Shown: in pieces, positions 34,603 through 64,000 of the stretch
Numbering within the stretch: position 1 is the first letter of the stretch
Layout of the letters: each line of letters opens with the position of its first letter
DNA from: an uncultured Candidatus Rokubacteria bacterium
GTDB taxonomy: Bacteria; Methylomirabilota; Methylomirabilia; Rokubacteriales; CSP1-6
Direction: 5' to 3'
Assembly (NCBI GenBank): GCA_963734175.1
Contig: CAVTGC010000004.1
Span: 7,875 to 71,874, forward strand
DNA length: 64,000 bases
The notes under the pieces: model-generated
Told to the model about the DNA's origin: nothing
Seen by the model: the letters and a program-made list of their open reading frames with translations, nothing else
Database searches by the model: none
Translations under genes and position numbers: made by a program

Positions 34603-35907
34603 TCAGGGAGCGACGGCCTGCCCCATCTCCTGCACGCGCCGCCGCACGAGGTCCAGATGCACGCGCAGGTGGTAGTAGGCGTCGGAGTAGCCGAGCGGCA
34701 CCCGGAGGCCCCGGATCTCGTCCTCGATGTGCTCGAGCCGGGTCAGCAGCTCGGCCCGCTCCTCCGGCGAGGGGCGCCGGGTGAGGAGCTGGTCGACGTC
34801 CACCACGTCGCGGTACCGCTTGATGATCTTGGAGCGGATGCGCCAGGCATAGACCGCGGGCACCAGGCGCGCCAGCGGCACCAGCACGAGCAGCGGCAGC
34901 AGCAGCACCTTGACGCGATCGGCCAGCGTCGCCGCCCAGAATGGCAGGTAGCGAGCCAGCAGCGGCGGTCCCGACTTGTGGTACCGCTCGGCCTCGCCCA
35001 TGAGCGGGAACTCCAGGTACTCGGGAGAGGGAAACTGCTTGGGCGCCTCGAACATCCCCCGCTGGCCGTGCACGGAGGCGGCCGTCACCAGGATCAGATC
35101 CACCAGCGCCGGATGGAAGTCGGTCCGAACGACCAGGGTGGCGGCCGGCGCCAGCAGCAACGTCTCTCGGGGCGGCAAATTCGACTCCAGACTGATGCCG
35201 CCGGCGGGCAGGACGAGCTTCGTCAGGAACGGAAACCGCTTGGTGTAGGCGTCGGCCCGGGGGAAGCTCAGGAGCGCGATCCCGGGGGTGCCAAGCATCT
35301 CCCGCACCGTCGGCGAGGTCGTTCCGGCTACCAGAAAGACGGTATCGACGGCGCCCCGGCGCAGCGCGTGGGCGGCCTCGATGCCCGTCAACGGGAGCAC
35401 GCGGGCCGTCGAGGCACTGATGCCGTTGGCGGCCAGCAAGGTGAGCGCGACCGCGCGGGTGCCGCTGCCCTCCGGACCGACGGCCAGGCGTCGGCCTCGT
35501 AGCTCGCGCAGGTCGGTCGGGCCGGGATCCGCGCGCGAGAAGACCCAGAGCGGCTCGAAGTACAGGCTTCCCAGCGACACCAGCTTGTCCGGGGCCGCGC
35601 CGCTGCTGGTTCCGCCCTGGACGAAGCCGATGTCGACGCCGCTCTGGGGATCCTCGAGGAGACGGATGTTCTCGACGGCGCCGGAGGTCTGCCGCACCTC
35701 CAGCGTGATGCCCTCCCGGGCGAGCCGCGTGCGGTACTGCTCGGCGAATCGATAGTAGGCGCCGTCGGCGCGGCCGGTCGCGATGACCACCCGGCTGGGC
35801 GGCGCCGGCTTCACCCACTGGAACGCCACGATGAAGGCGATGACGACCGCGATCGTGGCCGGCCCCACCACGGCCAGCTGGTCCCGCCACGCCCACCGCG
35901 ACTTCAT
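34603..35907 (-). CDS. Membrane-anchored TAXI-family (TRAP-associated) solute-binding-like protein with extra C-terminal TM segment and cytoplasmic tail
   Basis: 434 aa. N-terminal TM (LAVVGPATIAVVIAFIVAF). TAXI-like core (VVIATGRADGAYYRF..., SGAVENIRLLEDPQSGVDIGFVQGG). C-terminal hydrophobic stretch LLLPLLVLVPLARLVPAVYAW followed by a charged ~90 aa tail. No DctQ/M-like TRAP membrane genes nearby. Confidence 0.6.
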   Translation of the reverse strand: MKSRWAWRDQLAVVGPATIAVVIAFIVAFQWVKPAPPSRVVIATGRADGAYYRFAEQYRTRLAREGITLEVRQTSGAVENIRLLEDPQSGVDIGFVQGGTSSGAAPDKLVSLGSLYFEPLWVFSRADPGPTDLRELRGRRLAVGPEGSGTRAVALTLLAANGISASTARVLPLTGIEAAHALRRGAVDTVFLVAGTTSPTVREMLGTPGIALLSFPRADAYTKRFPFLTKLVLPAGGISLESNLPPRETLLLAPAATLVVRTDFHPALVDLILVTAASVHGQRGMFEAPKQFPSPEYLEFPLMGEAERYHKSGPPLLARYLPFWAATLADRVKVLLLPLLVLVPLARLVPAVYAWRIRSKIIKRYRDVVDVDQLLTRRPSPEERAELLTRLEHIEDEIRGLRVPLGYSDAYYHLRVHLDLVRRRVQEMGQAVAP

Positions 35908-37433
35908 CGCGCCCCCCTGTCGCGGAGCGTCTTGCGGTCGATCTTCCCGGCCGGGGTCTTGGGCAGCTCGTCCACGATCTCGATGGCCCGCGGGTACTCG
36001 TGCTTGCTGAGCCGGTCCTTGACGAACTCCTGGAGGTCACGGGCAAAGGCCGCCGTCTTGCCGACGGCGACGACGAATGCCTTGGGGATCTGGCCGCGCA
36101 GCTCGTCGGGGACGCCGATCACCGCCGCCTCCCGCACGTCGGGGTGGCCGAGCAGCGCCTGCTCGATCTCCAGCGCGCTCATCGTCCACCCGGCCGAGAT
36201 GATCACATCGTCGGAGCGGCCGGCGTGAAAGAAGTAGCCGTCGGCGTCGACGGAGCCGCGGTCCTTCACGCGGAACCACTCGCCCCGCCGCCGCACCGCG
36301 ATCTCGCCGAGCTGTCCGGGCGGCAGCGGACCGTCGGCGCCGACGACCGCCACCTCCCAGCCCGGGGCCGCCGTCCCGAGCGCCCCCCGCCGGACCTCGT
36401 AGCCCTCGAAGCCGGGATAGTTGACGATGATCACCCCGACCTCGGTGCTGCCGTACATGCTGCAGGGCTTCCGCCCGAACGTCTGCTCGACGAACTCCCA
36501 CGTCTTGCCGTCCATCGGCTCGCCGGTGAACGACAGCTTCTCCGGCGTGAACCGCCGGTCACCGGCGGCTCCCGACTCGCGGATCATCCGGTAGACCGTC
36601 GGCGCCGCCGCCAGGTTGGTGATGTCGAAGGCGCGCAGGGCCTCGACGAGCCGGTCCGGGCTGAACTTCCCGGCGTAGCTGCCGACCGCGATCCCCAGCG
36701 CCAGGGGGGCCATCGTGCCGTGCCAGAGCCCGTGGCCCCACGCCGGTGACGACGGGCAGAAGTACCGATCGCCGGCCCGCAACCCGACGCCGTAGAGCGC
36801 GGCGACCATGAGCGTGACCACCGAGCGATGGGTGTGGCGCACGGCCTCGGGCAGCGCGCGCGTGGTTCCCGACGTGTACTGGAACAGCGCGAGCTCGTCG
36901 GGCCCGGTGGCCGGCACGTAGCGCGGGGACGCCGCTCGCAGCCGCTCGGCGAGCGAGTCGACGGCGACGACGGTGACGCCGGGGAACCGCGCCTGCCAGC
37001 GCTCGGCGTCGTGCTCGACGACCAGCATCCGGGGCCGGCAATCGTCGATGCGCAGCGCCAGTCCGTCGGGCCCGAACAGCGTGAACAGGGGGACGGCGAC
37101 GGCGCCGCGCTTGACCGTCCCGAACACGGCCCCGTAGAAGGCCAGCGAAGGCTCCAGCATGATCGCCACCCGCTCGCCGCGGCCGACGCCGGCCTCCTCG
37201 AGCACGTTGGCGAAGCGGGAGGACCAGTCGGCCAGCGCGCCGAAGTCGTGCTCCTCGCGCCGGCCGTCGGCGAACTGGATGCGCAGCGCCGTGCCCTTGC
37301 CCAGGTGGCGGTCGACGCACTCGTGGGCCAGGTTCAGGCGCTGCCGATCGCCGTCCACCAGCTCCCACAGCGCGTCCCACCGGAACTGCTCCCGCGCCTC
37401 GGGATAGCGGCGCACATCGAGGATCGAGCTCAT
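35904..37433 (-). CDS. AMP-dependent acyl-CoA synthetase/ligase
   Basis: ~509 aa from the ATG at 37433 (MSSILDVRRYPEAREQF...). AMP-binding motif LFQYTSGTTRALPEAV, then YGSTEVGVIIV and ELPKTPAGKIDRKTL. ATGA overlap with the upstream MaoC stop; its stop overlaps the TAXI start. Confidence 0.85.
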   Translation of the reverse strand: MSSILDVRRYPEAREQFRWDALWELVDGDRQRLNLAHECVDRHLGKGTALRIQFADGRREEHDFGALADWSSRFANVLEEAGVGRGERVAIMLEPSLAFYGAVFGTVKRGAVAVPLFTLFGPDGLALRIDDCRPRMLVVEHDAERWQARFPGVTVVAVDSLAERLRAASPRYVPATGPDELALFQYTSGTTRALPEAVRHTHRSVVTLMVAALYGVGLRAGDRYFCPSSPAWGHGLWHGTMAPLALGIAVGSYAGKFSPDRLVEALRAFDITNLAAAPTVYRMIRESGAAGDRRFTPEKLSFTGEPMDGKTWEFVEQTFGRKPCSMYGSTEVGVIIVNYPGFEGYEVRRGALGTAAPGWEVAVVGADGPLPPGQLGEIAVRRRGEWFRVKDRGSVDADGYFFHAGRSDDVIISAGWTMSALEIEQALLGHPDVREAAVIGVPDELRGQIPKAFVVAVGKTAAFARDLQEFVKDRLSKHEYPRAIEIVDELPKTPAGKIDRKTLRDRGAR

Positions 37434-38512
37434 CGCGTGGGCAGCACGACCTCGGCGGTCCCGGCCGCGATCACCTCGCCGCGCTGGTTCGTTCCGTCGA
37501 TCTCCAGCGTCACCACGCCGCCCGGCGCCTTGCCGGTGACGCGGCCCCGGCACCACGTGGTGTCGCCGATCAGGTTGTGGCGCAGGACCTTGGCGTGCAG
37601 ACGGCGCAGGAAGCCGCCGTCGCCCATCCAGTTGGTGACGAGGTGCCCGAGCCAGGCGACGCGCTCGGGGCCGTAGTCGTAGGCGCCGGGGACCCCGACG
37701 GCCCGGGCCATCGCCTCGTCCCAGTGCACGCGCTCGGGCGGCTCCGGCACGCCGAAGCCGTTGGGAATGCCGAGCGCGGGATGACGCTCGAACATGTCGA
37801 AGGCGAGGCCGTGCGCGCGCACATACAGGCTGCCCCATCCCTGCACGAAGGCGACGACCGAGGTCACGGTCAGCGGCCCCTTCACCACCTCGGGCATCGC
37901 CTCCCCCACCGTCACGTCCTCCCAGTAGCGCGGCGTCGCGCCCCGGATCGCCTCCGTCGCGTACGCGTGCTTGATGGCGGCCAGCTCGGCGGCCGAGTAC
38001 TGGTGGGGTCCCTCCGAGGTGTACTTGCCGCGCTCGCGCGCGGTCTCCCGCTCGGTGCGGAAGCACCACGAGTCGGCCTCGCAGACGACCTCGCCGCGCT
38101 GGTTGGTGAAGGTCGTCCGGTAGATCTGCTGGATGGCCCGCTTGGCGAACTTCGACGGCTTCTCGATCAGCGCGTGGAGCACGCTCTCACCGACGATGCG
38201 ATCGTCCATCCGGATCGGGCGCTCCCAGCGGAAGTCGGTCCCCGCGTACATCGCGTGGATGCCGGGCAGGCCCCCGACGTAGCCGGAGACGATCCGGTCC
38301 AGCGCGAACAGGATCGTCGGGGGGGCGACGCCGGCCGCGGTCCAGTACGGGTTGCGGTCGCCGATGCCGTGGGCCCAGTGCCGGATGGCGTCCCGGGTGG
38401 CCACCTCGATGTAGGGCTCAGGACGACGCACGGGCTTGCCGAGCCGGGATTGGAGGTTGGCGAGCGCCTCGGGCGTGATGGAAGGAAAGCGCGTGGAGGC
38501 CAGCGTGGTCAT
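37430..38512 (-). CDS. MaoC-like double hot-dog (R)-enoyl-CoA hydratase/dehydratase
   Basis: 360 aa, matching the two-domain N-terminal half of MaoC plus MaoC dehydratase arrangement (PYWTAAGVAPPTILF..., VAFVQGWGSLYVRAHGLAFD..., GRVTGKAPGGVVTLEIDGTNQRGEVIA). GAGAGGA SD. Confidence 0.8.
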   Translation of the reverse strand: MTTLASTRFPSITPEALANLQSRLGKPVRRPEPYIEVATRDAIRHWAHGIGDRNPYWTAAGVAPPTILFALDRIVSGYVGGLPGIHAMYAGTDFRWERPIRMDDRIVGESVLHALIEKPSKFAKRAIQQIYRTTFTNQRGEVVCEADSWCFRTERETARERGKYTSEGPHQYSAAELAAIKHAYATEAIRGATPRYWEDVTVGEAMPEVVKGPLTVTSVVAFVQGWGSLYVRAHGLAFDMFERHPALGIPNGFGVPEPPERVHWDEAMARAVGVPGAYDYGPERVAWLGHLVTNWMGDGGFLRRLHAKVLRHNLIGDTTWCRGRVTGKAPGGVVTLEIDGTNQRGEVIAAGTAEVVLPTR

Positions 38513-38654: not shown

Positions 38655-39626
38655 TCAGGCCTTCCGGCCCCCTGCCATCATGCGCAGGAACGCCGGCGAC
38701 AGGCGGGGGTCGAGCGTGTCACGGATCCCGTCGCCGAGCAGGTTGAAGGCGAGCACCGTCACCGTGATGGCCAGGCCCGGGAAGAAGGCCAGCCACCACG
38801 GCGGCACCAGGGCGGTGATCGAGTCGGCCAGCATGTTGCCCCAGGTCGGCGTCGGCGGCGGCACGCCGACGCCCAGGAAGCCGAGCGCCGCCTCGATGAC
38901 GATCGCCACGCCCAGGTGGGTGGTGGCCAGCACCAGGTAGGGCGCGATGCACTGGGGCAGCACGTGCAGGGTCATGATCCGCAGCGCCGAGCCGCCGCTC
39001 GCCCGCCCCGCCTCCACGTACGGCATCTCGCGCACCGACAGCGCCACCGAGCGGATGACGCGGCCGCCGAAGGGAATGCGCGTGATGGCGATGGCGAAGA
39101 TGACAGCCTGCAGGCCGGTGCCGATGGCCATCGAGATCGCCATGGCCAGGATGAGGTCGGGGAACGCCTGCATGATCTCCATGATCCGCTGGCTCACGAG
39201 ATCGAAGCGTCCGCGCAGGTAGCCGCACGCCACCCCCCACAGCGAGCCGACCGTCGTGCCCAGGATGACCGCCGAGAACGCCACGAACAGCGAGGTGCGG
39301 GCGCCGTAGATCACCCGGCTCAGCGTGTCGCGGCCCACCTGGTCGGTACCGAGCAGGCTCTGGGCGTCCGGCGGCTTGTTCATGCGGCGGAAGTCCGCCT
39401 TCAGGGGATCGCGCGGGGCCAGCAGCGGCGCCGCCAGCGCCACGAACACGATGAACAGCCCCACGACGCCCCCCAGGGCCGACAGCGTGTTGCGGCGGGA
39501 GAAGCGCACGAGCTCGGCGAGGACGGCCTTGAGCGCGGGCGCCCGGCGGGCGCTCGACGCCGGCGGCTCCACGGCCCCGACCGCGGCCTCGGCCATCAGC
39601 TGTACCGGATGCGTGGGTCGAGCCAC
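38655..39626 (-). CDS. ABC transporter permease, DppC/OppC-type
   Basis: 323 aa with a binding-protein-dependent transport inner-membrane signature region (LAFFPGLAITVTVLAFNLLGDGIRDTLDPR) and multiple TM segments. Confidence 0.8.
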   Translation of the reverse strand: MARPTHPVQLMAEAAVGAVEPPASSARRAPALKAVLAELVRFSRRNTLSALGGVVGLFIVFVALAAPLLAPRDPLKADFRRMNKPPDAQSLLGTDQVGRDTLSRVIYGARTSLFVAFSAVILGTTVGSLWGVACGYLRGRFDLVSQRIMEIMQAFPDLILAMAISMAIGTGLQAVIFAIAITRIPFGGRVIRSVALSVREMPYVEAGRASGGSALRIMTLHVLPQCIAPYLVLATTHLGVAIVIEAALGFLGVGVPPPTPTWGNMLADSITALVPPWWLAFFPGLAITVTVLAFNLLGDGIRDTLDPRLSPAFLRMMAGGRKA

Positions 39627-40552
39627 GCGTAGCTGAGGTCGACGAGGACGTTGACCGCCACGAAGATCACCGCGTACAGGAGCACGAGGTTCTGCACCAC
39701 GATGATGTCACGCTCGATCACGGCGGTCACCAGCGCGCGCCCCAGCCCGGGCACGCCGAAGGCCTGCTCGACCGCCACCGAGCCGCCCAGCACGAAGCCG
39801 AGCAGCACGCCCGAGATGGTGATGACCGGCAGCAGCGCGTTGGGCAGCGCGTGGCGCATGACCACGAACCCCTCCCGCAGCCCCTTGGCCCGGGCCGTGC
39901 GCACGAAGTCCTCGCTGATCACCTCCAGCAAGCACGAGCGCGACATGCGCGCGATGTAGGCGCCCTGGGCGAGGCCGAGCACCAGCGCGGGCCCGATGAC
40001 GATCTGCAGGTTCTCCCACGGGCTCTGCCAGAGGTGGACGATGACGATGGGCGCCTTGTAGCCGAACCAGAACAGCAGGGCCAGCACGATGAGCATCCCC
40101 ATCCAGAAGCCGGGGACGGCGATGAACAGCACCGACAGCGCGCGGGCCACCCCGTCGGGAAGGCTGTTGGGTTTGAAGGCGCTCAGGATGCCGACCGGGA
40201 GCCCGACCAGCCACGAGACGACCAGCGCCAGCACCGCGATCTCGGCACTGATGGGCCCGCGGTGGAGGATCTGCTCGGCCACGGTGTCGCCGCGGAAGAA
40301 CGACTTGCCGAGCCGGCCGGCCCCGATGTCGACGAGCCAGCGGCCGTACTGCACGGGCAGCGGGGCGCTGAGGCCGAGGTCGGCCATGATGCGCTCGCGG
40401 TCGGCCGGCGTCATCCGCGCGTGGCCCTCCACCCCGAGGATGGCCACGAGCGGATCCCCCGGCAGGATCCGGAGGATCACGAAGATGCTGATCGACACGC
40501 CGAGCAGCGTGATGGCGGCATACACGGCCCGGCGCGCTAGATACTTCCTCAT
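39596..40552 (-). CDS. ABC transporter permease, DppB/OppB-type
   Basis: ~318 aa from the ATG at 40552 (MRKYLARRAVYAAITLLGVSISIFVILRILPGDP...). The 31-nt 3' overlap with the dppC-type gene is typical for these permease pairs. Confidence 0.8.
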   Translation of the reverse strand: MRKYLARRAVYAAITLLGVSISIFVILRILPGDPLVAILGVEGHARMTPADRERIMADLGLSAPLPVQYGRWLVDIGAGRLGKSFFRGDTVAEQILHRGPISAEIAVLALVVSWLVGLPVGILSAFKPNSLPDGVARALSVLFIAVPGFWMGMLIVLALLFWFGYKAPIVIVHLWQSPWENLQIVIGPALVLGLAQGAYIARMSRSCLLEVISEDFVRTARAKGLREGFVVMRHALPNALLPVITISGVLLGFVLGGSVAVEQAFGVPGLGRALVTAVIERDIIVVQNLVLLYAVIFVAVNVLVDLSYAWLDPRIRYS

Positions 40553-40557
40553 TCGAG

Positions 40558-40627
40558 GTGGGGGGCCCCGAAAGGGCCCCCCACACCCCCCAGCGTTCGG
40601 GGGGCCCCGGCGGAGCCGGGGCCCCCC
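40558..40627. repeat. Two tandem, related, perfect GC-only hairpin palindromes in the SBP-permease intergenic region (REP-like or mRNA-stabilising stem-loops)
   Basis: GTGGGGGGCCC-cgaaa-GGGCCCCCCAC at 40558-40584 and GGGGGGCCCCGG-cggag-CCGGGGCCCCCC at 40599-40627. Both are built on a GGGGGGCCCC core. The first ends 5 nt from the permease start codon. No T-tract. Confidence 0.6.
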
Positions 40628-40695
40628 TCTATCGAGCGATCGATGGCTCCTCGCGACGCTCTGAAGGCGCTTGACCGCGCCTGCTGTCACGCCGT

Positions 40696-56248: not shown

Positions 56249-56622
56249 CGCGGCTCCTCGAACGCGGCCACGATGTCGGGCAGCGGGGTGCCCATCGGGA
56301 ACACGCGGGCCACGCCCATCGCCAGCAGCGCCGGCACGTCGCGCGGCGGGATGGTGCCACCGACCACCACGCGGACGTCGCCGGCGCCCTGGGCGCGCAG
56401 CCCGTCGAGCACCCGGCGGGACAGCGTCAGGTGCGCGCCCGAGAGGATCGACAGCCCCACGACGTCCACGTCCTCCTGGACCGCCTCGGCCACGATCTCC
56501 TCGGGCGTCCGCTTGAGCCCGGAGTACACGACCTCCACTCCGGCGTCGCGCAGAGCGTGGGCCACCACCTTGGCACCGCGGTCGTGGCCGTCGAGGCCGG
56601 GCTTGGCCACCAGGACCTTCAT
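56245..56622 (-). CDS. B12-binding small subunit of split acyl-CoA mutase
   Basis: ~125 aa. [36 protein letters not shown] has the DxHxxG cobalamin His-ligand motif. The ATG at 56622 overlaps the upstream stop (TGATG). Confidence 0.8.
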
Positions 56623-57101: not shown

Positions 57102-57502
57102 CGCGGGTTGCCCTTGGGATCGGGATCGACGGCGAGCGGCTTCAGGCGCACGCGCTGGCCGATCGTCACGCGGGCGGGATCGGCGTCGAGCAGGATCGAG
57201 AAGACCCGGTGCTCGCCGACTTTCACGATCGCGAACACCCGGGGCGCGGTGAAGCCGGCCGGCAGCCCCGTCTCCTGCACCGTGAAGCCGTGCACGGTGC
57301 CCTCGGCGGGCAGGTCGGCCCAGTCGAACGCGTCGCTGCCGCACTCCGGGCAGAAGCCGCGCGGCGGCCACGCCGTGCGGCCGCAGCCCGAACAGCGGGT
57401 GGTACAGAGGCGGCCCTGCCCGAGCCGCGTGTAGAACTCGTGCAGCTTGGTGAAGTCGGCCGCCTCCAGCGGGAACGGATCGGTCGCGCGGAAATAGCTC
57501 AC
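57071..57502 (-). CDS. DUF35 family Zn-ribbon/OB-fold protein (partner of SCPx-type thiolases)
   Basis: CSGCGRTAWPPRGFCPECGSDAFDW is a rubredoxin-like Zn ribbon, followed by an OB-fold-like tail. The GTG at 57502 overlaps the amidohydrolase stop (GTGA). An alternative ATG lies at 57517. Confidence 0.6.
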   Translation of the reverse strand: MSYFRATDPFPLEAADFTKLHEFYTRLGQGRLCTTRCSGCGRTAWPPRGFCPECGSDAFDWADLPAEGTVHGFTVQETGLPAGFTAPRVFAIVKVGEHRVFSILLDADPARVTIGQRVRLKPLAVDPDPKGNPRWLPAFTPSA

Positions 57503-58860: not shown

Positions 58861-59816
58861 GAGCGCTCCGATCGCAGGCGTCGTAGCAGCGCCCGCACCT
58901 TGTCGGTCTCGAACGCCTCGCGCCGGTCGCCGGTGTAGTCGAAGAAGCCGCGGCCCGTCTTGGGCCCCAGCTCGTTGCGCGCCATCTTCTCCTCGACGAG
59001 GCGGGCCGGCCGGAACCGCTCGTCGCCCGTCGCCTCGGTCATGTAGCGGCTGGCCCGGTACAGGATGTCCACGCCGCCCCAGTCGATGAACTCGAAGATC
59101 CCGATCGACGCGTAGCGAAAGCCCATGCCGGCCTTGAAGGCGCGGTCGACGTCCTCCGGCGTGGCCACGCCCTCCTCGACCAGCCGCACCGCCTCGTTCA
59201 TCAGCAGCACCTGCAGCCGCGGGCCGATGAAGCCGGGCGAGTCGCCGCACCGCACCGGGGTCTTGCCGAGGCTCTCGAGCAGCGCCAGCGTCCGTTCGAC
59301 CGTGGCCGGCGCCGTGCGCGGGCCCGGTACCACGTCGACGAGCGGGATGATGTGAGCCGGGTTGAGCCAGTGGGCGACCAGGAACCGCTCCGGCCGCTCC
59401 ACCGCGTCGCACACGTGGGAGGGCGAGATCGTCGACGACCCCGAGGCGACGATGGCGTCGGCGTCGACGACGCCGCTCACGCGGGCCAGCGCCGCCTGCT
59501 TGAGCGGCACCGATTCCGGCAGCGCCTCCTGCACGAAGCCGCACCCCTTCAGCGCGTCGAGGCCCACCCGCTCCTCGATGCGGCCCAGCACGGCGGCCGC
59601 CTCCGCCTCGTCGATCACGCGCTCCTCGACCATGAGGCCGACGTCGCGGACGATCTCGCGGCGGGCGTCGGCCAGCGTGCGCGCGGCCTCGGCGGCCGGG
59701 CGCCCGTCCTTGACGTCGACCAGGCGCACGGGGCAGCCGCCCAGCGCGAAGGCCAGCGCGATCTGGCGGCCGATCCGGCCGGGCCCGAGGACGGCGATCG
59801 TGGGCCGCTCCGTCAC
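58857..59816 (-). CDS. 3-hydroxyacyl-CoA dehydrogenase (NAD-binding, HBD/FadB C-terminal type)
   Basis: 319 aa. IAVLGPGRIGRQIALAFALGG Rossmann motif. ...SGSSTISPSHV..., HWLNPAHIIPLVDVV, FIGPRLQ. Confidence 0.8.
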   Translation of the reverse strand: MTERPTIAVLGPGRIGRQIALAFALGGCPVRLVDVKDGRPAAEAARTLADARREIVRDVGLMVEERVIDEAEAAAVLGRIEERVGLDALKGCGFVQEALPESVPLKQAALARVSGVVDADAIVASGSSTISPSHVCDAVERPERFLVAHWLNPAHIIPLVDVVPGPRTAPATVERTLALLESLGKTPVRCGDSPGFIGPRLQVLLMNEAVRLVEEGVATPEDVDRAFKAGMGFRYASIGIFEFIDWGGVDILYRASRYMTEATGDERFRPARLVEEKMARNELGPKTGRGFFDYTGDRREAFETDKVRALLRRLRSERS

Positions 59817-60982
59817 GCGGGGTCCTTGCCGTAGATCATCACCACGTGCTCGCCCATGCCGCTGTTGTTGTGGGTGAGGCCGATGGCGGCCTCCGGCACC
59901 TGCCGGGCGCCGGCCTCGTCGCGCAGCTGAACGAAGACCTCGGCGGCCTGGGCCACGCCGGTGGCACCGAGCGGATGGCCACAGCCGATCAGCCCGCCCC
60001 GCGGGTTGACGACGAGGTCGCCGCCGTAGTCGCTGCGCCCGGCGGCCGCGAACGGTCCCGCCTCGCCCTTGGCGCAGAAGCCCAGCTCCTCGTAGGCGAT
60101 CAGCTCGGCGATCGCGAAGCAGTCGTGCACCTCGGCGAGGTCGACGTCACCCGCGGTGATCCCGGCCATGCGGTAGGCCGCCGCGCCCGCGCGGTGCAGC
60201 GCGGGCCAGCGGGCGTAGTCCTCGTGCAGCGAGGTGAGCTGGAAGCCGTCGAGGGCCTGGCCGGTACCGCGGATCCACACGGGCCGGTCGGTGAGGTCGC
60301 GGGCCCGCTCCTCGCTGGCCAGCACGACGGCGGCCGCGCCGTCGGTGATCGGCGAGCACATGAACAGGCGCAGCGGGCTCGAGATCATCCGCGAGCCGAG
60401 CACCTGGTCGAGCGTGGCGCCCTTGTTGAAATGGGCGTTGGGGTTCTTGGAGGCGTGGGTGTGGTTCTTCACGCCGACCCGGGCCAGCTGCTCCTCCGTC
60501 GTGCCGTACTCGGCCATGTGGCGCTGGGCGGCCAGCGCGAAGCAGGGCGGCGCCGTGAGCCCGAACGCCGCCTCCCACTCGCGGTCCACGCCGGTGCCCA
60601 TGTTCAGGATCGCCTCGTCGCCGCTCGGCTGGTTGAGCTTCTCCACGCCGAGCACCATCACCAGGTCGGCCAGGCCAGCGGCGATGAACGCGTAGGCGTA
60701 GCGGATGCCCACGGTGCCGGAGGCGCACATGTGCTCGGTGCGCGCGCTCAGCGTGCTGGGCCGGATGCCGAGCGCCTCGGCGGTGAGCGACGAGATGTGA
60801 CTCTGGAACGCCGTGCGCTCGGGCATGACGGAGCCGACGACGAGCCCGTCGACGTCCCGCGGCTTCACGGCCGGCACCGAATCGAAGCAGGCCTTGCCGG
60901 CCTCCCAGATCAGGTCGCGGTACGAGGCCTTGCGGACGCCGAACTTGGTGACCCCGGCGCCGACCAGCGCGACGCGCTTCAT
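59813..60982 (-). CDS. SCPx-type (non-decarboxylating, lipid-transfer-protein-like) thiolase
   Basis: 389 aa. MKRVALVGAGVTKFGVR..., active-site Cys context (TEHMCASGTVG), C-terminal GGLIGCGHPLGATG. Typical partner of DUF35 proteins. Confidence 0.8.
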   Translation of the reverse strand: MKRVALVGAGVTKFGVRKASYRDLIWEAGKACFDSVPAVKPRDVDGLVVGSVMPERTAFQSHISSLTAEALGIRPSTLSARTEHMCASGTVGIRYAYAFIAAGLADLVMVLGVEKLNQPSGDEAILNMGTGVDREWEAAFGLTAPPCFALAAQRHMAEYGTTEEQLARVGVKNHTHASKNPNAHFNKGATLDQVLGSRMISSPLRLFMCSPITDGAAAVVLASEERARDLTDRPVWIRGTGQALDGFQLTSLHEDYARWPALHRAGAAAYRMAGITAGDVDLAEVHDCFAIAELIAYEELGFCAKGEAGPFAAAGRSDYGGDLVVNPRGGLIGCGHPLGATGVAQAAEVFVQLRDEAGARQVPEAAIGLTHNNSGMGEHVVMIYGKDPA

Positions 60983-61545
60983 GGCAGCTCTCCCCGGAGC
61001 CGGCGCGCGACGTGCGCGTGGCCCTGTTCCTCGGCGATCGTGAGTGCCGTCTTGCCGTCGTCGGTGCGCGCCTCGGCCGCCGCTCCGTGGGCCAGCAGCG
61101 CGTTGACGACCGGGACGTCGTCACGGAAGGCGGCGATGTGCAGCGGCGTGTAGCCGCGGGCGGCCCGGGCGTTGACGTCGGCGCCGCCGGCCAGGAGCCG
61201 GCTGACGATGCGGAGGTCGGCGCGCCCGGCCAGTCCGGCGTGCAGCGCGGTGTTGGCCTCGTGGTTGTCGGAGCGTGCCCGCACGTCGGCCCGCGCGTCC
61301 AGGAGCGCGTCGACGGCGTCACCGTGACCGAAGTGGGCGGCCAGGTGCAACGCCGGCCAGCCGTCGGGGCTGCGTATTCCGAGCGAGGCCGGCTCGGCCC
61401 GGGCCAGCGCGCGCACGCGGGCGGCATCGCCGAGGGCGGCGGCCTCGCACAGCGTCGGCGTGGCCCCGTCGGCCACGAGCCGCTCGGCGGCGGCGCGGTC
61501 GCCGCGGTAGACCGCGGCCAGGATCGGCGTGGGCGTGGCCGTCAT
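60979..61545 (-). CDS. Ankyrin-repeat protein (~188 aa, 3-4 repeats)
   Basis: ATG at 61545 (ATGA overlap with the HAD stop). Repeats such as DGWPALHLAAHFGHGDAVDALLDARADV, NTALHAGLAGRADLRIVSRLLAGGADVNA and GYTPLHIAAFRDDVPVVNALLAHGAAAEA carry the TPLH/ALH ankyrin signatures. Confidence 0.6.
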   Translation of the reverse strand: MTATPTPILAAVYRGDRAAAERLVADGATPTLCEAAALGDAARVRALARAEPASLGIRSPDGWPALHLAAHFGHGDAVDALLDARADVRARSDNHEANTALHAGLAGRADLRIVSRLLAGGADVNARAARGYTPLHIAAFRDDVPVVNALLAHGAAAEARTDDGKTALTIAEEQGHAHVARRLRGELP

Positions 61546-62210
61546 GCCTTGGTCAAGAAGTCCGCCGCCTCGGCCAGCGTGCGGAACTCGTGGTCGGCGC
61601 CGCGGCCGTCCAGCGGCCGCTCGCTCTTGCGGTTGATCCACACCGTCGGCAGGCCGAGCGCCCGCGCCGGCTGCACGTCGTGGAAGTAGCTCTGGGCCAC
61701 GTGGGCCCACGGCGCCGTCCCGATGCGCTCGCGCGCCGCCGTGAAGTGCCCGGGCGCCGGCTTGTAGGACCCCACCTGCTGGGCGGTGACGACGAAATCG
61801 AACTCCACCCCGAGGTGGCGTCGGGTGCCGGCCAGCAGGTCGTCGTCGACGTTCGAGAGAATCACGAGCCGGTGACCGGCGTCCTTCAACCGGCGGAGGG
61901 CCTCGTTGGTATCCGGGAACGGCGGCCACGCCGGCAGGCTGTCGGGCAGGAAGGCCTCGCGGTCCGGCGCCAGCCGCCAGCCGAGCCGGTCGGCGACCGC
62001 GCGCGCGGCCAGGGCCAGGACCTCGCGATAGCGCCGGTAGCGCTCGGCCTGGATCCGCGGCTCCAGCTCGTGATAGGCGCCCAGCACGGCCGCCCCGTCC
62101 AGCGTCACGCCGTCGGCGCGCGCGGCCGCCGCGAAGGCCTCGCCAATGCCGCGCTCCCAGTCGATCAGCGTGCCGTAGCAGTCGAAGGTCAGCACCTCGA
62201 AGCGCCTCAC
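61542..62210 (-). CDS. HAD-superfamily hydrolase (haloacid dehalogenase type II-like)
   Basis: 222 aa. VLTFDCYGTLIDWE (DxYGTL motif I), ...LSNVDDDLL..., SYKPAPGHF (motif III Lys). Confidence 0.65.
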   Translation of the reverse strand: MRRFEVLTFDCYGTLIDWERGIGEAFAAAARADGVTLDGAAVLGAYHELEPRIQAERYRRYREVLALAARAVADRLGWRLAPDREAFLPDSLPAWPPFPDTNEALRRLKDAGHRLVILSNVDDDLLAGTRRHLGVEFDFVVTAQQVGSYKPAPGHFTAARERIGTAPWAHVAQSYFHDVQPARALGLPTVWINRKSERPLDGRGADHEFRTLAEAADFLTKA

Positions 62211-63367
62211 GCGAACGCCCCTGCACGGTCCCAGTCCAGCTCGCGCCCGATGACCAGGCGCAGGATCTCCGAGGTCCCCCCGCCCGGCAGCAGGAAGCGG
62301 GCATCACGGAAGTAGCGCTGGACCGGATACTCCATGGCCAGGCCGTAGGAGGCGAAGATTCGCGCGGCCTCGTCGGTGATCCGCACCGCGGTCTCGGAGG
62401 CGAACAGCTTGGCCATCGCCGCCTCGCGGCCGATCGGGCGGCCGGCGTCGAGGCGGGCCGCCGCCTGGTAGGTCACGAGGGCGGCGGCGTGCAGCGAGGT
62501 CAGCATGTCGGCCAGCTTGAACGAGATCGCCTGGTGCTCGCCGATCGGCTTGCCGAACGCCCGCCGCTGCCGCGCGTAGGCGAGCGCGGCGTCGTAGGCG
62601 GCCCGGGCCAGCCCGACCGAGAGCGCGGCCGTCATGATGCGGATCTCGGCCAGGATCGACCCGATCTTGTCGACGCCGCCCGTCTCGCCGCCGAGCAGAT
62701 GCTCGTCGGGCACCTCCACGTCCTCGAGGATGATCTCCCCCGTGACCGAGCCCCGCACCGCCATCTTGTCGATGGCCTTCCCGAGCGTGATGCCCCGCAT
62801 CGTGGAGCGGTCGAGCAGGAACAGGGCGATGTTCTTGAGGCCGCGCTCGTCGGAGGTCTTGGCGGCGACGGTCAGCATGTCGGCGACGGGCGCGCTGGTC
62901 ACCCAGGTCTTGGTCCCGCGCAGCACCCAGCGATCGCCGCGCCGCTCGGCCCGCGTGGTGATGGCGGCGACGTCGGAGCCGGCGTCGGGCTCGGTCAGCG
63001 CGAAGGTGGCGACGAGGTCGCCGCGCAGCGCCGGCGTCAGATAGCGCGCCCGCAGCGCCTCCGAGCCGTACTTGAAGACGAAGTACGTCCCCATCAGCGA
63101 CTGCATGGCGGCGGCCGCCGCCAGCGACAGCGAGCCCCGGGCCAGCTCCTCGGCGAACACGCAGTACGTCGTCATGTCGGCGTCGGCGCCGCCGTACTGC
63201 TCGGGGTAGCGCAGCCCCAGCCAGCCCTGAGCGCCGATCCGCTTGAACGGCTCCCGCGGGAACTCGCCCCGCTCGTCGATGGCGTCGGCCTGGGGCACGA
63301 CCTCGGCGTCGACGAACCGAGCGACGGTGCGGCGAAAGGTCTCCTGCTCGGCGGTGAAGGCGATCAT
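62207..63367 (-). CDS. Acyl-CoA dehydrogenase
   Basis: ~386 aa from the ATG at 63367 (ATGA overlap). ...YGGADADMTTYCVFAEELARG..., LTEPDAGSDVAA, GGTSEILRLVIGREL and a catalytic Glu region near the C-terminus. Confidence 0.85.
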   Translation of the reverse strand: MIAFTAEQETFRRTVARFVDAEVVPQADAIDERGEFPREPFKRIGAQGWLGLRYPEQYGGADADMTTYCVFAEELARGSLSLAAAAAMQSLMGTYFVFKYGSEALRARYLTPALRGDLVATFALTEPDAGSDVAAITTRAERRGDRWVLRGTKTWVTSAPVADMLTVAAKTSDERGLKNIALFLLDRSTMRGITLGKAIDKMAVRGSVTGEIILEDVEVPDEHLLGGETGGVDKIGSILAEIRIMTAALSVGLARAAYDAALAYARQRRAFGKPIGEHQAISFKLADMLTSLHAAALVTYQAAARLDAGRPIGREAAMAKLFASETAVRITDEAARIFASYGLAMEYPVQRYFRDARFLLPGGGTSEILRLVIGRELDWDRAGAFA

Positions 63368-64000
63368 GCGGAGGCCGACTGGCGAAGCCATTCGGTGGCG
63401 GCGGCGTCGACGCGCAGGTCGAATCCCTCGCCCATGATCACGACGCCGTACTCCGCGCGAGCGGCCTCGATCGAGACGTAGTCGTCGAGCACGTCGTCGA
63501 GCACGCGGGCGGGATCGCGCGCGAGCGGATCGCCGTAGCCGCCGGCTCCGGACTGCTGGAAGGAGATGACGTCGCCGTGAGCGAACTCCCGCGACTGCTT
63601 GCCGTTGACGAGCTGCTCTCCGGGACCGGGGTTGATGACGGTGCGGGCCAGCCGGCCCGGCTTGCCGCCGAAGACGCCCCAGGGGGCGAAGCGGTGGCGC
63701 TCGGACAGGTTGGTGAGCTGCCCCTCGTCGGCGAGGAAACGCAGATCGCGCCGGATGCCGCAGCCGCCGCGGAACGTCCCGGCGCCGGCCGAGTCGGGAA
63801 TGAAGCCGAACTGCTCGACGACGATCGGCTGCGCGGCCTCCTGGGCCTCGACCGGAATGTTGGAGGCGTTGAAGGCCCACGACATGCCCTCGCAGCCGTC
63901 CCGCGTCGCCCGGGCGCCGGTGCCGGACAGCACCAGCTCGTAGGCGACGAAGCGCCGCCGGCGCGCGCGGTCCCGGCCGCCGAAGGTCGGATTGGCGAAG
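63364..64000 (-). CDS. Hydantoinase B/5-oxoprolinase/acetone-carboxylase-alpha family protein, C-terminal part (gene continues beyond right window edge)
   Basis: ...FGFIPDSAGAGTFRGGCGIRRDLRFLADEG...GVFGGKPG... is HyuB-type C-terminal sequence. The frame is open to position 64000. Confidence 0.7.
   Translation of the reverse strand, partial: FANPTFGGRDRARRRRFVAYELVLSGTGARATRDGCEGMSWAFNASNIPVEAQEAAQPIVVEQFGFIPDSAGAGTFRGGCGIRRDLRFLADEGQLTNLSERHRFAPWGVFGGKPGRLARTVINPGPGEQLVNGKQSREFAHGDVISFQQSGAGGYGDPLARDPARVLDDVLDDYVSIEAARAEYGVVIMGEGFDLRVDAAATEWLRQSASA

Follow-up and report, generated by a model that had tools for sequence, protein, structure and literature searches.

What does a long run of co-directional genes, mixing acyl-CoA processing, cyclic-amide hydrolysis, and transport, do in an uncultured Rokubacteria bacterium, and is it a new catabolic route? 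We analyzed a window of 64,000 nucleotides (contig CAVTGC010000004.1, positions 7,875 to 71,874) and, by GC3 frame analysis and Pfam, identified 28 minus-strand genes, all co-directional, from position 34603 to the window edge, which truncates hydantoinase B, the first gene of the array. An earlier note had claimed about 32 genes; the same-strand minus array is real, but the count is 28. Pfam bore out every enzyme family named there and identified ankyrin, Metallophos_2, Thioredoxin_9-like, V4R, and His_Phos_1 families in addition. Overlaps were found at 20 of the 27 junctions (15 by 4 nt, 3 by 1 nt, 1 by 7 nt, and 1 by 31 nt) and gaps at the other 7 (16, 37, 294, 185, 70, 143, and 142 nt), with the 185-nt (LivF to HisPhos) and 70-nt (HisPhos to SBP5) gaps omitted from the previous list. 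Of 16 overlaps cited earlier, 15 lie where they had been placed, but 48015-48018 is no junction, and those at 62207 and 59813, read as ATGA, exist as GTGA. In compact high-GC operons, the 4-nt overlap is the commonest junction type, and the overlap density is therefore high, not anomalous. Relatives have short gaps at many junctions that overlap in the window.

We consider it likely that the conserved genes at the core of this array form an iaa-type cluster for CoA-dependent, oxygen-independent conversion of the plant hormone indole-3-acetate to 2-aminobenzoyl-CoA and acetyl-CoA; homology and synteny are what point to indoleacetate as the substrate. Aromatoleum evansii and A. aromaticum are the species from which this pathway was originally reported, and its published functions include the IaaGH mutase, IaaL CoA-transferase, IaaF, IaaM binding protein, IaaB ligase, and regulators. 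The Aromatoleum iaa locus serves indoleacetate (auxin) degradation (PMC8360864), and IaaCE is a hydantoinase-like hydrolase (PMC8453981). The core genes in the window, and the opine-dehydrogenase-like and V4R genes that the Rokubacteria version has after the transferase, are as follows.

63364..64000, minus: hydantoinase B-type subunit (IaaE-like), C-terminal 211 aa; Pfam Hydantoinase_B 8.4e-42
62207..63367, minus: IaaF-type acyl-CoA dehydrogenase (benzylmalonyl-CoA dehydrogenase subclass); all three ACAD Pfam domains
56245..56622, minus: B12-binding small mutase subunit (IaaH-like); B12-binding 1.6e-25, TIGR00640 158 bits
53774..55370, minus: acyl-CoA mutase large subunit (IaaG-like arylsuccinyl-CoA mutase); MM_CoA_mutase in two frames
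50807..53071, minus: xanthine-oxidase-family molybdopterin large subunit; Ald_Xan_dh_C, MoCoBD_1, MoCoBD_2
49617..50810, minus: family III CoA-transferase (IaaL-like); CoA_transf_3 7.4e-133
48473..49579, minus: opine-dehydrogenase (ODH)-like NAD(P) oxidoreductase; Octopine_DH, NAD_Gly3P_dh_N
47996..48476, minus: small V4R-domain protein; weak V4R Pfam match

The window core and the Aromatoleum iaa locus have in common hydantoinase-like A/B subunits, a GGG-type ACAD, a split B12 mutase, a xanthine-oxidase-family Mo subunit, a family III CoA-transferase, and a Liv-type importer. The order HyuA, HyuB, ACAD(GGG), B12 subunit, mutase, Mo enzyme, and CoA-transferase is repeated in independent lineages, among them Burkholderiales and other phyla. 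The earlier note could not place the array in a described pathway, but it can be assigned to that of the Aromatoleum iaa locus (PMC8360864); a match of this kind was the outcome that the earlier note had named as removing novelty. As a proxy only for the characterised A. aromaticum proteins, to which likeness is drawn from published descriptions, we used L073, an iaa-type locus from Burkholderiales, and found identities of 50% for ACAD, 56% for the mutase, 51% for the B12 subunit, 49% for the Mo subunit, 39% for HyuA, 29% for HyuB, 32% for the CoA-transferase, and 29% for the AMP-ligase. A thiolase and a ligase also lie upstream in L073, in keeping with the iaaA-L lettering, and L070-72 and L074 (the last from Acidobacteriota) carry indolepyruvate-oxidoreductase-like genes upstream of the iaa-type set.

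The ACAD carries the motif FLLPGGGTSEI, in which GGG replaces the catalytic YEG. This replacement is a signature of all IaaF orthologues, and every member of the IaaF branch is located in iaa operons (PMC8360864). GGG was found in 120/120 of the closest ACAD homologues and in 117/120 homologues of a distant IaaF-like protein, and several orthologues carry the JGI label "benzylmalonyl-CoA dehydrogenase." The mutase keeps the Tyr, Arg, Gln, and Tyr-His positions of MCM, where Tyr and Arg bind the carboxylate, whereas HCQTSG is changed to LIGGGG and LHTN..DEA to MALPTYDEA, both invariant in 41 orthologues; the Gly-rich replacement and the TMAL..DEA motif are shared with the L070 and L073 mutases. 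The B12 subunit has a DGHDRG (DxHxxG) motif. Locus L062, 98.7% identical to the window in DNA, extends further upstream, where it encodes full-length HyuB (596 aa), HyuA (689 aa), and a regulator of the GntR/UTRA type. The nearest solved structures of HyuAB are ATP-dependent lactamases (N-methylhydantoinase 7hk5 and caprolactamase 6yra), not carboxylases; HyuAB is relocated in L054 and L037, yet still within the locus.

The Mo subunit, a putative indoleacetate or indoleacetyl-CoA 2-hydroxylase, best matches 4-hydroxybenzoyl-CoA reductase alpha in NCBIfam (615 bits; cut-off 994) and 1rm6 in PDB (438 bits; runner-up 300). The CoA-transferase best matches SUGCT and succinate-glutarate CoA-transferase, with 172 bits to benzylsuccinate CoA-transferase; it likely depends on succinyl-CoA and acts on dicarboxylates, and occupies the same slot after the Mo subunit in the window, L070, and L073. 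Conservation was counted across those 36-37 Rokubacteria loci whose flanking DNA was sufficient, where the Mo subunit was identified in 36/36, the CoA-transferase in 35/36, the B12 subunit in 34/36, and V4R in 21/37, with a 157-aa V4R gene annotated at the equivalent place in L001. The ODH-like gene (nearest structure CENDH 1bg6, 135 bits) is present in every fetched locus by construction, since it was the anchor for fetching; the gene is peculiar to the Rokubacteria version and is absent in L070, L073, and L074. The Rokubacteria version differs further in having SCPx thiolase, HBD, and DUF35 genes inserted after IaaF; these and two further acyl-CoA genes are as follows.

59813..60982, minus: SCPx/archaeal-type thiolase; Thiolase_N, Thiolase_C_1, PRK06064 418 bits, BbsB 198 bits
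58857..59816, minus: 3-hydroxyacyl-CoA dehydrogenase (HBD, PRK08269 type); 3HCDH_N, 3HCDH, PRK08269 353 bits
57071..57502, minus: DUF35 (zinc ribbon and OB fold), thiolase partner; zf-ChsH2, OB_ChsH2_C, weak BbsA match
37430..38512, minus: double hot-dog (MaoC/FAS1-DH-like) hydratase; FAS1_DH_region 6.5e-11
35904..37433, minus: AMP-forming acyl-CoA ligase (g26); AMP-binding, AMP-binding_C

The thiolase (30/36 loci, identity 84-97%), HBD (26/36), and DUF35 (32/36) recur, the thiolase presumably cleaving 3-oxo-3-arylpropionyl-CoA. The hydratase and the AMP-ligase are lineage-specific, each found in 1/37 loci (L003 only); the hydratase could supply the otherwise missing enoyl-CoA hydratase step, and the ligase is a possible IaaB substitute. 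Most other Rokubacteria (about 27 loci) have a PaaK-like ligase 3' of the Liv genes, and none was identified in the window. The transport genes are as follows.

47121..47999, minus: LivH-type ABC permease; BPD_transp_2 1.1e-33
45016..47124, minus: fusion of a LivM-type permease and a LivK-type solute-binding domain (IaaM-like); single 702-aa ORF
43942..44721, minus: LivG-type ABC ATPase; ABC_tran, BCA_ABC_TP_C
43207..43942, minus: LivF-type ABC ATPase with one frameshift; ABC_tran
40696..42375, minus: family-5 solute-binding protein, accessory; SBP_bac_5 2.2e-70
39596..40552, minus: DppB-type permease, accessory; BPD_transp_1, 5/37 loci
38655..39596, minus: DppC-type permease, accessory; BPD_transp_1, OppC_N, 4/37 loci
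34603..35907, minus: TAXI-family TRAP solute-binding protein, last gene of the array; NMT1_3, TIGR02122 95 bits

LivH was found in 26/37 loci. In the fusion, BPD_transp_2 spans residues 26-288 and Peripla_BP_6 residues 347-689; LivM and LivK are also contiguous in L036 and L038 and are separate genes in other loci.

Carried over from the published pathway to the enzyme families identified here, the route would begin with import of the acid by the Liv-type ABC system via its tethered LivK-like binding domain, followed by activation by the PaaK-like ligase in most Rokubacteria, with g26 as the candidate in the window. The Mo hydroxylase would then act at C2 of the pyrrole ring to give the lactam 2-oxoindoleacetate, which ATP-dependent hydantoinase-like HyuA/HyuB would open to (2-aminophenyl)succinate or its CoA ester, with CoA placed or moved by the family III CoA-transferase using succinyl-CoA. 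The split B12 mutase may convert (2-aminophenyl)succinyl-CoA to (2-aminobenzyl)malonyl-CoA, from which GGG-type IaaF would form 2-aminocinnamoyl-CoA by oxidation and decarboxylation, and a round of beta-oxidation would be closed by a hydratase (MaoC here), HBD, and SCPx thiolase with DUF35. Earlier suggestions that the locus serves to import and break down an N-heterocyclic acid, with Mo hydroxylation, cyclic-amide opening by a hydantoinase-type enzyme, and B12 carbon-skeleton rearrangement, and of an SCPx thiolase with DUF35 for beta-oxidation of bulky acyl-CoA were right in outline. The known type of auxin-breakdown pathway would here be found in Rokubacteria, an uncultured soil phylum.

Several observations count against the indoleacetate reading. 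Canonical-type loci have both FAD and FeS genes between the mutase and the Mo subunit, whereas no FAD or 2Fe-2S subunit homologue adjoins the Mo gene in the window or any Rokubacteria locus, the sole FeS match (L055) lying about 7 kb off, next to a different Mo gene. Identity to other iaa-type loci is low for the CoA-transferase (31-32%) and HyuB (29-35%), the PaaK-like ligase is missing from the window and the AMP-ligase is distant from that of L073, the ODH-like and V4R genes 3' of the transferase are not accounted for by the published scheme, the hydratase falls outside the conserved core, and the mutase, V4R, and LivF are frameshifted as sequenced.

An opine, hydantoin, or branched-amide substrate, the earlier proposal, has no support. 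Across related loci, the family-5 SBP importer was found in 4-5/37 (the SBP gene itself, with an AGGAGG ribosome-binding site at its start codon, in 5/37), the amidohydrolase and the alpha/beta hydrolase each in 9/36, the HAD hydrolase in 2/36, and TAXI, like MaoC and the ligase, in 1/37 (L003 only). No Dpp-type ATPase genes follow DppC. The accessory enzymes are as follows.

61542..62210, minus: HAD hydrolase (haloacid dehalogenase type II family); TIGR01428 128 bits, cut-off 125
60979..61545, minus: ankyrin-repeat protein; Ank_2/Ank 1.6e-23, 1/36 loci
57499..58860, minus: amidohydrolase, TRZ/ATZ-deaminase group; Amidohydro_1 1.3e-49, NCBIfam deaminase/chlorohydrolase models each under cut-off
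56622..57101, minus: YfcE-type metallophosphoesterase; Metallophos_2 2.6e-35, TIGR00040, 12/36 loci, shares 31 nt with DUF35
55367..56248, minus: alpha/beta hydrolase (haloalkane-dehalogenase-like); Abhydrolase_1 7.5e-32, PRK03204 217 bits, cut-off 466, mostly deleted in closest relative L003
53088..53780, minus: Thioredoxin_9-like protein; PF14595 9e-13, 10/36 loci, no match among NCBIfam models
42446..43021, minus: histidine-phosphatase-family protein; His_Phos_1 1.5e-7, 3/37 loci

These 7, the family-5 importer, and TAXI are lineage-specific accretions and no conserved part of the pathway. Since only the core recurs among the 36-37 Rokubacteria loci, with MaoC, ligase, TAXI, and other add-ons variable, the 30-kb "super-operon" is a mosaic of a known pathway core and lineage-specific extra genes. 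About 15 genes are conserved together, and relatives have insertions on the opposite strand as well as deletions, so the 30 kb does not hold as a single conserved unit; the array is neither a new pathway nor a proven 30-kb operon, and is probably several transcription units rather than one. Two structured intervals were identified.

44740..45016, no strand: near-perfect palindrome of 277 nt filling the LivK-LivG spacer; inverted repeats I1-I3
40553..40695, minus: pair of perfect GC-rich hairpins 3' of the SBP gene; fold -95.9 kcal/mol, z = -5.45

The palindrome (dG -220.5 kcal/mol, z = -12.4) divides the Liv genes in a spacer of 294 nt, against about 10 nt in relatives, and occurs once in the window and in none of the fetched loci. 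It is likely an inserted hairpin element and possibly a transcription barrier. Of two spacers of about 140 nt described earlier as structured, 40553-40695 is so, but 38513-38654 has no structure (z = -0.2).

Each of three genes, the mutase large subunit, V4R, and LivF, contains a frameshift as sequenced. The mutase is broken by a 1-nt insertion at 54597, an extra base missing in L003 and L062, so that MM_CoA_mutase profile positions 4-253 and 261-512 fall in separate frames, and V4R by a 1-nt insertion at 48104, private to the window relative to L003. As private single-base insertions, these two are most likely assembly errors. In LivF, the break lies at about 43735-43780, with ABC_tran profile positions 1-38 and 60-136 in different frames; in relatives, both parts share a single frame. 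Corrected lengths are 531 aa for the mutase and 159 aa for V4R, and once the V4R insertion is removed, the true V4R/LivH GTGA overlap lies at 47996-47999.

We modeled the genes of the window, whose GC content is 68-78%, from third-codon-position GC and stop-to-stop reading frames and then checked them against Pfam. This gave 28 genes on the minus strand between 34603 and the window edge. The earlier note had described a minus-strand super-operon of ~30 kb with ~32 genes; the co-directional array stands, with the lower count of 28, and it is not a single conserved unit. Every enzyme family named there was found in the array (Pfam), and ankyrin, Metallophos_2, Thioredoxin_9-like, V4R, and His_Phos_1 families, absent from that account, were identified as well. 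With start codons picked by ribosome-binding site and orthologue length, neighboring genes overlap at 20 of the 27 junctions (15 overlaps of 4 nt, 3 of 1 nt, 1 of 7 nt, and 1 of 31 nt) and are separated at the other 7 by gaps of 16, 37, 294, 185, 70, 143, and 142 nt. Fifteen of the 16 overlaps cited earlier lie exactly where they had been placed, with those at 62207 and 59813 reading GTGA rather than ATGA; no junction exists at 48015, and the overlap of the V4R and LivH genes falls at 47996-47999 after a 1-nt insertion is taken out. Two spacers of ~140 nt had been called structured, which is borne out for 40553-40695 but not for 38513-38654 (z = -0.2). The features beside and between the genes are as follows.

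33076-34602, plus strand: convergent gene for a family-5 solute-binding protein (SBP), identified with Pfam.
40553-40695, directly after the family-5 SBP gene of the array: twin perfect GC hairpins of 12-13 bp (fold z = -5.45).
44740-45016: near-perfect palindrome of 277 nt that fills the 294-nt LivK-LivG spacer (-220 kcal/mol, z = -12.4).

The twin hairpins look like an intra-operon stabilizer or attenuator. The palindrome, found once in the window and absent from 65 related loci searched for it, may be a hairpin-type insertion element; the LivK-LivG spacer measures ~10 nt in relatives, as against 294 nt here. Rfam gave no matches on the window, with no riboswitch or leader detected, and scans for consensus promoters and terminators did not rise above chance in this 72% GC DNA. 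The module of family-5 SBP and DppB/DppC genes (38655-42375) is without Dpp-type ATPase genes in the window.

The nearest relatives of the window are metagenome-assembled genomes (MAGs) of Candidatus Rokubacteria (Methylomirabilota). The opine-dehydrogenase-like (ODH-like) protein is 97% identical to a protein on a 3.0-Mb contig of MAG MFD02840.bin.3.55 (locus L003), and it has a homologue in 59 species-level genome loci, a recurrence across Rokubacteria that holds by construction because this gene was the anchor with which the loci were fetched. Another near relative, L062, shares 98-99% DNA identity with 52324-64000 and reaches 9.4 kb past the right edge, where it encodes a GntR/UTRA regulator and the hydantoinase-like pair HyuA and HyuB, followed by the acyl-CoA dehydrogenase (ACAD).

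We searched all window proteins against the fetched loci with tblastn, taking the Rokubacteria loci with ~10 kb of flank. The molybdenum (Mo) enzyme subunit was identified in 36 of 36 loci, the CoA-transferase in 35/36, the mutase with its B12 subunit in 34/36, DUF35 in 32/36, the thiolase in 30/36, the 3-hydroxyacyl-CoA dehydrogenase (HBD) in 26/36, the Liv genes in ~25/37, and V4R in 21/37, and the ACAD and HyuB were present wherever the flanking DNA extends to them. Accessory genes were counted over 36-37 loci: Metallophos_2 in 12, the Thioredoxin_9-like gene in 10, the amidohydrolase and the alpha/beta hydrolase in 9 each, the family-5 SBP with DppBC in 4-5, HisPhos in 3, HAD in 2, and ankyrin in 1; MaoC, ligase, and TAXI genes had a counterpart in L003 only. 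Rearrangements were also identified. The Rokubacteria locus L001 carries 2 opposite-strand peptidase genes within the array, and L003 shows a clean loss of 43218-47990 (4.8 kb, Liv genes) together with most of the alpha/beta hydrolase gene (55410-56240). Liv genes are mostly lost in L003, L001, and L004, L002 holds a LivF gene but has LivK and LivG only as fragments, and HyuA/HyuB have been relocated between V4R and LivH, still inside the locus, in L054 and L037. A recurring core, variable accessories, and these rearrangements together resolve the 30 kb into a conserved core of ~15 genes plus passengers, and the idea that the whole stretch is kept as one unit fails on the same grounds. A stand-alone trio of Mo, CoA-transferase, and ODH-like genes was seen in 2 loci (L018 and L055).

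The decisive lead to the identity of the core was the JGI annotation of several ACAD orthologues as "benzylmalonyl-CoA dehydrogenase", which is IaaF of the Aromatoleum iaa operon for the degradation of indole-3-acetate (IAA, auxin) (PMC8360864). All IaaF orthologues have GGG instead of the catalytic YEG, and the whole branch lies in iaa operons (PMC8360864). Residues 358-368 of the window ACAD (62207-63367, minus strand) read FLLPGGGTSEI, with GGG replacing YEG, and the motif was identified in 120 of its 120 closest homologues. GGG-type ACADs at ~50% identity occur in Bacteroidota, Planctomycetota, Acidobacteriota, and Burkholderiales, so the pathway type is widespread; a plasmid search with the ACAD returned only generic ACADs of at most 44% identity.

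In Aromatoleum aromaticum EbN1 and A. evansii KB740, the iaaABCDEFGHIJKLMPQR genes allow indoleacetate to be degraded anaerobically (Schuhle 2021, PMC8360864). They encode, besides IaaF, the ligase IaaB, the mutase IaaGH, the CoA-transferase IaaL, the binding protein IaaM, and regulators (PMC8360864), as well as the hydantoinase-like hydrolase IaaCE, with IaaC of 707 aa and IaaE of 564 aa (PMC8453981). The conserved core matches these published functions: both have a HyuA/HyuB pair, a GGG-type ACAD, a mutase with a separate B12 subunit, a Mo subunit, a family III CoA-transferase, a periplasmic binding protein, and a regulator, in the order found in the Burkholderiales MAG locus L073. The Aromatoleum locus is said to be covered also by Ebenau-Jehle 2012 and Schuhle 2016, and the abstract of the 2012 paper reportedly adds a Mo dehydrogenase of the xanthine-oxidase family to it.

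Gene order extends the match across phyla. The L073 locus reads GntR, thiolase, AMP-ligase, HyuA (705 aa), HyuB (564 aa), GGG-type ACAD, and B12 subunit, followed by the mutase, FAD subunit, FeS subunit, Mo subunit, and CoA-transferase, which fits the iaaA-L lettering and the published sizes of IaaC and IaaE. Three metagenome loci (L070-72), found through a mutase relative with a similar Gly-rich motif, read HyuA, HyuB, GGG-type ACAD, a fused B12-mutase, a fused FAD/FeS subunit, Mo subunit, and CoA-transferase, and the Acidobacteriota locus L074 has the same cluster start with a partial match in order. The order HyuA, HyuB, IaaF, mutase, Mo enzyme, CoA-transferase is thus common to the window, L070-72, and L073, and partly to L074. 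In the window, the C-terminus of HyuB overlaps the ACAD start by 4 nt, and full HyuA and HyuB genes lie upstream in L062 (98.7% identical). Identities between window and L073 are 50% for the ACAD, 56% for the mutase, 51% for the B12 subunit, 49% for the Mo subunit, 39% for HyuA, 29% for HyuB, and 32% for the CoA-transferase, which occupies the same position after the Mo enzyme as in L070 and L073 with an identity of only 31-32%. Directly upstream of HyuA in L070-72 (1006-4955) and L074 (4537-6220) lie indolepyruvate:ferredoxin-oxidoreductase-like genes (TPP_enzyme_C, Fer4, Pyr_redox, and POR), which suggest that in these loci entry is from indolepyruvate or tryptophan and not from free indoleacetate.

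Judged by sequence comparison, the locus is probably a version of the known iaa cluster for auxin degradation that is specific to this phylum and set amid variable neighbors. The GGG-type ACAD, the gene set, and the cross-phylum order overturn the earlier view that no described pathway fits, and an unassignable new pathway within a single 30-kb operon is not supported; what had been described as a 30-kb super-operon for an unknown pathway is mostly explained as a known pathway core with variable passengers. To our knowledge, a CoA-dependent auxin pathway has been biochemically characterized only in denitrifying Aromatoleum. If the assignment is correct, an abundant uncultured soil phylum almost universally carries such an auxin-destroying pathway, which would bear on the control of auxin levels in soil and rhizosphere and suggests a concrete substrate for the enrichment or cultivation of Rokubacteria. 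Of continuing interest are a cluster that is nearly universal in Rokubacteria, a Mo enzyme whose electron-transfer subunits are missing, and the ODH-like and V4R genes.

The Rokubacteria version differs from that of Aromatoleum, a denitrifying betaproteobacterium as opposed to an uncultured soil phylum, in several ways. It lacks FAD and FeS genes for the Mo enzyme, its IaaF and mutase genes are parted by those for an SCPx thiolase, HBD, and DUF35, and ODH-like and V4R genes come after the transferase; a complete Liv ABC importer also lies within the cluster and in the window includes a permease-SBP fusion, and the ligase is PaaK-like in most Rokubacteria or a distant AMP-ligase in the window. 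The bbs system for benzylsuccinate beta-oxidation in anaerobic toluene degradation (Thauera/Aromatoleum) has in common with the window a succinyl-CoA-dependent family III CoA-transferase, an ACAD with altered YEG, and an SCPx thiolase with DUF35 (BbsAB-like) acting on an aryl-substituted dicarboxylyl-CoA, but unlike the window it has no mutase, Mo hydroxylase, or hydantoinase. The BbsA and BbsB models scored 29 and 198 bits on the window, far under the cut-off, and the motif of BbsG is VEG, not GGG (PMC8360864). The iac genes of Pseudomonas putida 1290 and the iad genes of Variovorax share with the window the presumed substrate indole-3-acetate and, ecologically, a part in turning over auxin in soil and rhizosphere (PMC9613470). 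Their enzymes are unrelated and oxygenase-based (the flavin monooxygenase IacA and the dioxygenases IadDE/IacCD), with no CoA-ester mutase chemistry, and no iac or iad genes were identified in the window.

The steps of the route are taken from the published scheme, with only the enzyme families identified here. The acid would be taken up by the Liv system and converted to its CoA ester, and the Mo enzyme would hydroxylate C2 of the pyrrole ring to give an oxindole lactam. HyuAB would open this lactam with ATP to (2-aminophenyl)succinate or its CoA ester, and the family III transferase would place the CoA. The B12 mutase is predicted to convert the arylsuccinyl-CoA to (2-aminobenzyl)malonyl-CoA, which the GGG-type ACAD would oxidize and decarboxylate to 2-aminocinnamoyl-CoA. 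A hydratase, HBD, and the thiolase with DUF35 would then yield 2-aminobenzoyl-CoA and acetyl-CoA.

The mutase consists of a B12-binding subunit and an MM_CoA_mutase subunit (Pfam). Its large subunit is most similar to 2-hydroxyisobutyryl-CoA mutase (HCM; large subunit HcmA, the best PDB match) and methylmalonyl-CoA mutase (MCM), and it scored 499 bits against PRK09426, whose cut-off is 876. It retains equivalents of MCM Tyr89, Gln197, Arg207, and Tyr243-His244, with the roles that these residues have in MCM, ICM, and HCM; since the carboxylate-binding residues of MCM are kept, the enzyme should bind a substrate with a free carboxylate. Tyr and Ala stand at the positions of HcmA Ile90 and Asp117, the specificity residues of that enzyme, and a 2-hydroxyisobutyryl-CoA mutase pathway was dropped because these residues are MCM-like despite HcmA being the best PDB match. 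HCQTSG and LHTN(S/G)xDEA, of which HCQTSG and LHTN are kept in the solved MCM and HCM structures compared, are replaced by LIGGGG and MALPTYDEA, invariant in 41 orthologues, and an ordinary split methylmalonyl-CoA mutase regenerating succinyl-CoA was dropped because the active-site motifs are not kept. The mutases of the window, L070, and L073 share (I/M/L)(A/I)GGGG and TMAL..(Y/F)DEA. The Gly-rich pocket plausibly gives an aryl group room, and the Gly-rich replacement of HCQTSG together with TMAL..DEA may be a testable sequence signature of arylsuccinyl-CoA mutases. Among 1.8 billion representatives searched, MCM-like large subunits (P0241-P0390) form a large uncharacterized radiation at 40-50% identity, in which HCQTSG and LHTN..DEA are replaced in many different ways; this suggests that many of the acyl-CoA mutase specificities present in metagenomes are still undescribed.

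HyuA and HyuB are homologous over their full length to ATP-dependent lactamases, scoring 449 and 305 bits against N-methylhydantoinase (7hk5) and 384 and 261 bits against caprolactamase (6yra), and an acetone/acetophenone carboxylase was dropped, the scores against lactamases being far higher. By their likeness to N-methylhydantoinase, 5-oxoprolinase, and the caprolactamase CapAB, HyuAB would be expected to open a cyclic amide using ATP, with the gene context predicting an oxindole lactam and not hydantoin, oxoproline, or caprolactam. Succinyl-CoA:dicarboxylate transferases (SUGCT, succinate-glutarate) are the nearest relatives of the CoA-transferase, which matches benzylsuccinate CoA-transferase less well; an exact look-up of the window protein gave no match. 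The SUGCT-like transferase and the likeness of HyuAB to lactamases had agreed with a route from a lactam through an omega-amino acid to glutarate/adipate beta-oxidation, or with lysine/pipecolate degradation; such a route did not account for the mutase and was superseded by the GGG-type ACAD. Nothing specific supported ethylmalonyl-CoA or methylaspartate-cycle-like assimilation, carnitine, or acrylate. The thiolase and DUF35 resemble archaeal and BbsAB-type pairs. A PaaK-like ligase, placed after the Liv genes in most Rokubacteria, was identified in ~27 other Rokubacteria loci and not in the window; the window and L003 carry instead a distant AMP-ligase at the far end (35904-37433, minus strand, in the window), which is 29% identical to the L073 ligase. 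The importer includes an unusual fusion.

45016-47124, minus strand: LivM-type permease and LivK-type SBP in one 702-aa ORF, with a hydrophobic linker that resembles a signal peptide between them.

This arrangement would tether the binding protein. LivM and LivK are contiguous also in L036 and L038 and are 2 genes in most relatives; matches of the LivK domain to the PDB were too distant for ligand prediction.

The Mo subunit has 3 Pfam domains of the xanthine-oxidase family, shows the catalytic-Glu motif GAKGLGE in alignment, and is nearest to the alpha subunit of 4-hydroxybenzoyl-CoA reductase (HcrA among solved structures; 615 bits against a cut-off of 994), yet it is without partners of the HcrB and HcrC kind. 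By tblastn with the FAD/FeS protein of L070, no FAD/FeS partner gene was identified in the window or beside the cluster Mo gene in any Rokubacteria locus examined, the sole FeS match being in L055, ~7 kb off and beside a separate Mo-enzyme gene; in L070, L073, and proteobacterial homologues, FAD/FeS genes adjoin the Mo gene. A Thioredoxin_9-like gene sits in the usual FAD/FeS place in 10 of 36 Rokubacteria loci.

Homologues of the ODH-like protein in Proteobacteria are 41-48% identical. In the proteobacterial loci L063, L064, L065, L068, and L069, the ODH-like gene always overlaps a PRK08269-type HBD-like gene as a pair, and the pair adjoins a TRAP, MFS, or Liv transporter, usually TRAP. On Acinetobacter plasmid NZ_CP090068 (L064, 5887-16136), it adjoins MarR, amidase, ACAD, NTF2, Rieske alpha/beta, SDR, and VanB genes, a cluster that by its gene content looks like an aerobic iac auxin locus. 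On a Paracoccus saliphilus plasmid (L069), it adjoins a cluster of Rieske dioxygenase, ligase, and thiolase genes. The Acinetobacter neighborhood gives a hint, not proof, that the pair may act on an auxin-related compound. It is conceivable, if rather unlikely, that Rokubacteria have rewired the redox step of the pathway, with a Mo subunit working without FAD and 2Fe-2S subunits and the ODH-like NAD(P) oxidoreductase and Cys-containing V4R protein providing a new electron outlet or an undescribed step, which would act on an auxin-related compound. The pair beside the iac-like Acinetobacter locus and the phylum-wide occurrence of the cluster, by which Rokubacteria would be a major unrecognized soil auxin sink, both fit such a rewiring. 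We found nothing relevant in the literature on Rokubacteria or on opine dehydrogenases with the other enzymes.

We consider it unlikely that the same enzymology serves a substrate other than indole-3-acetate in Rokubacteria, such as 2-oxindole-3-acetate, an auxin conjugate or precursor, a phenyl- or naphthyl-acetate analogue, or phenylsuccinate-type compounds. IaaF and IaaL were characterized with the proxies benzylmalonyl-CoA and phenylsuccinate, and IaaF takes alkylmalonyl-CoAs of at least C4 (PMC8360864), which leaves room for this; so do the lack of FAD/FeS genes, the different ligase type, the extra ODH-like and V4R genes, and cross-phylum identities of just 29-56%. Against these stands the retention of all core parts, among them the Mo subunit for ring hydroxylation and HyuAB for lactam opening, which are needed only if an N-heterocycle is opened, and related loci pair indolepyruvate-oxidoreductase-like genes with the same core.

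That the auxin-degradation cluster is a decaying remnant, with real frameshifts and a pathway being lost in this lineage, is improbable. In the sequence as it stands, frameshifts interrupt three genes: that for the mutase large subunit lies in 2 frames with a break at ~54597 (PDB alignments join at HcmA residue ~305), the V4R gene has an extra base at 48104 and reads into LivH, and LivF changes frame at ~43735-43780. The loss of most Liv genes in L003, L001, and L004, their fragments in L002, and the palindromic element between LivK and LivG point the same way. However, the V4R and mutase insertions are single bases missing from L003 (95% DNA identity), and that of the mutase also from L062; apart from the frameshifts, the affected genes share 96-98% identity with intact orthologues; and L003 and L062 have their own scattered 1-nt indels in genes intact in the window (~20 in 11.7 kb of L062). 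Several polyketide synthase (PKS) module ORFs in the left half of the window are likewise broken mid-domain, which suggests further single-base assembly errors. Together, these observations give the V4R and mutase frameshifts the pattern of long-read assembly error rather than decay. The PKS genes (1-31747, minus strand) form a modular cis-AT type I cluster with KS-AT-DH-cMT-ER-KR-ACP modules and a thioesterase.

30974-31747, minus strand: type II thioesterase within the PKS cluster.

The earlier proposal of one 30-kb operon for an unknown branched, opine-like, hydantoin, or cyclic-amide compound, with every module essential, now seems very improbable and is largely refuted by the comparative data. 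The presence and shared direction of the named families, the overlaps at 20 of 27 junctions, and the wide occurrence in Rokubacteria of the ODH-like gene (a count that holds by construction for the anchor gene) agree with it. Set against this, the family-5 importer, amidohydrolase, HAD, alpha/beta hydrolase, MaoC, ligase, and TAXI genes each occur in 1-9 of 36-37 loci, opposite-strand insertions and deletions interrupt the array in relatives, and the core fits a described pathway. The ODH-like protein is only a distant relative of true opine dehydrogenase (135 bits to CENDH, 1bg6) with no NCBIfam equivalog, and with a family-5 SBP module in 4-5 of 37 loci, the features of a bona fide opine system were not found; the proposed substrate class has no support, given the rarity of the importer and hydrolases. 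Equally hard to credit is the opposite extreme of independent modules without shared function lying on one strand by chance in a gene-dense, high-GC genome: variable accessory content and an adjoining 31 kb of PKS genes on the same strand speak for it, but it is already contradicted for the core, in which ~15 genes keep their order over dozens of Rokubacteria species-level genomes and 6 genes across phyla, and remains true of the accessory genes.
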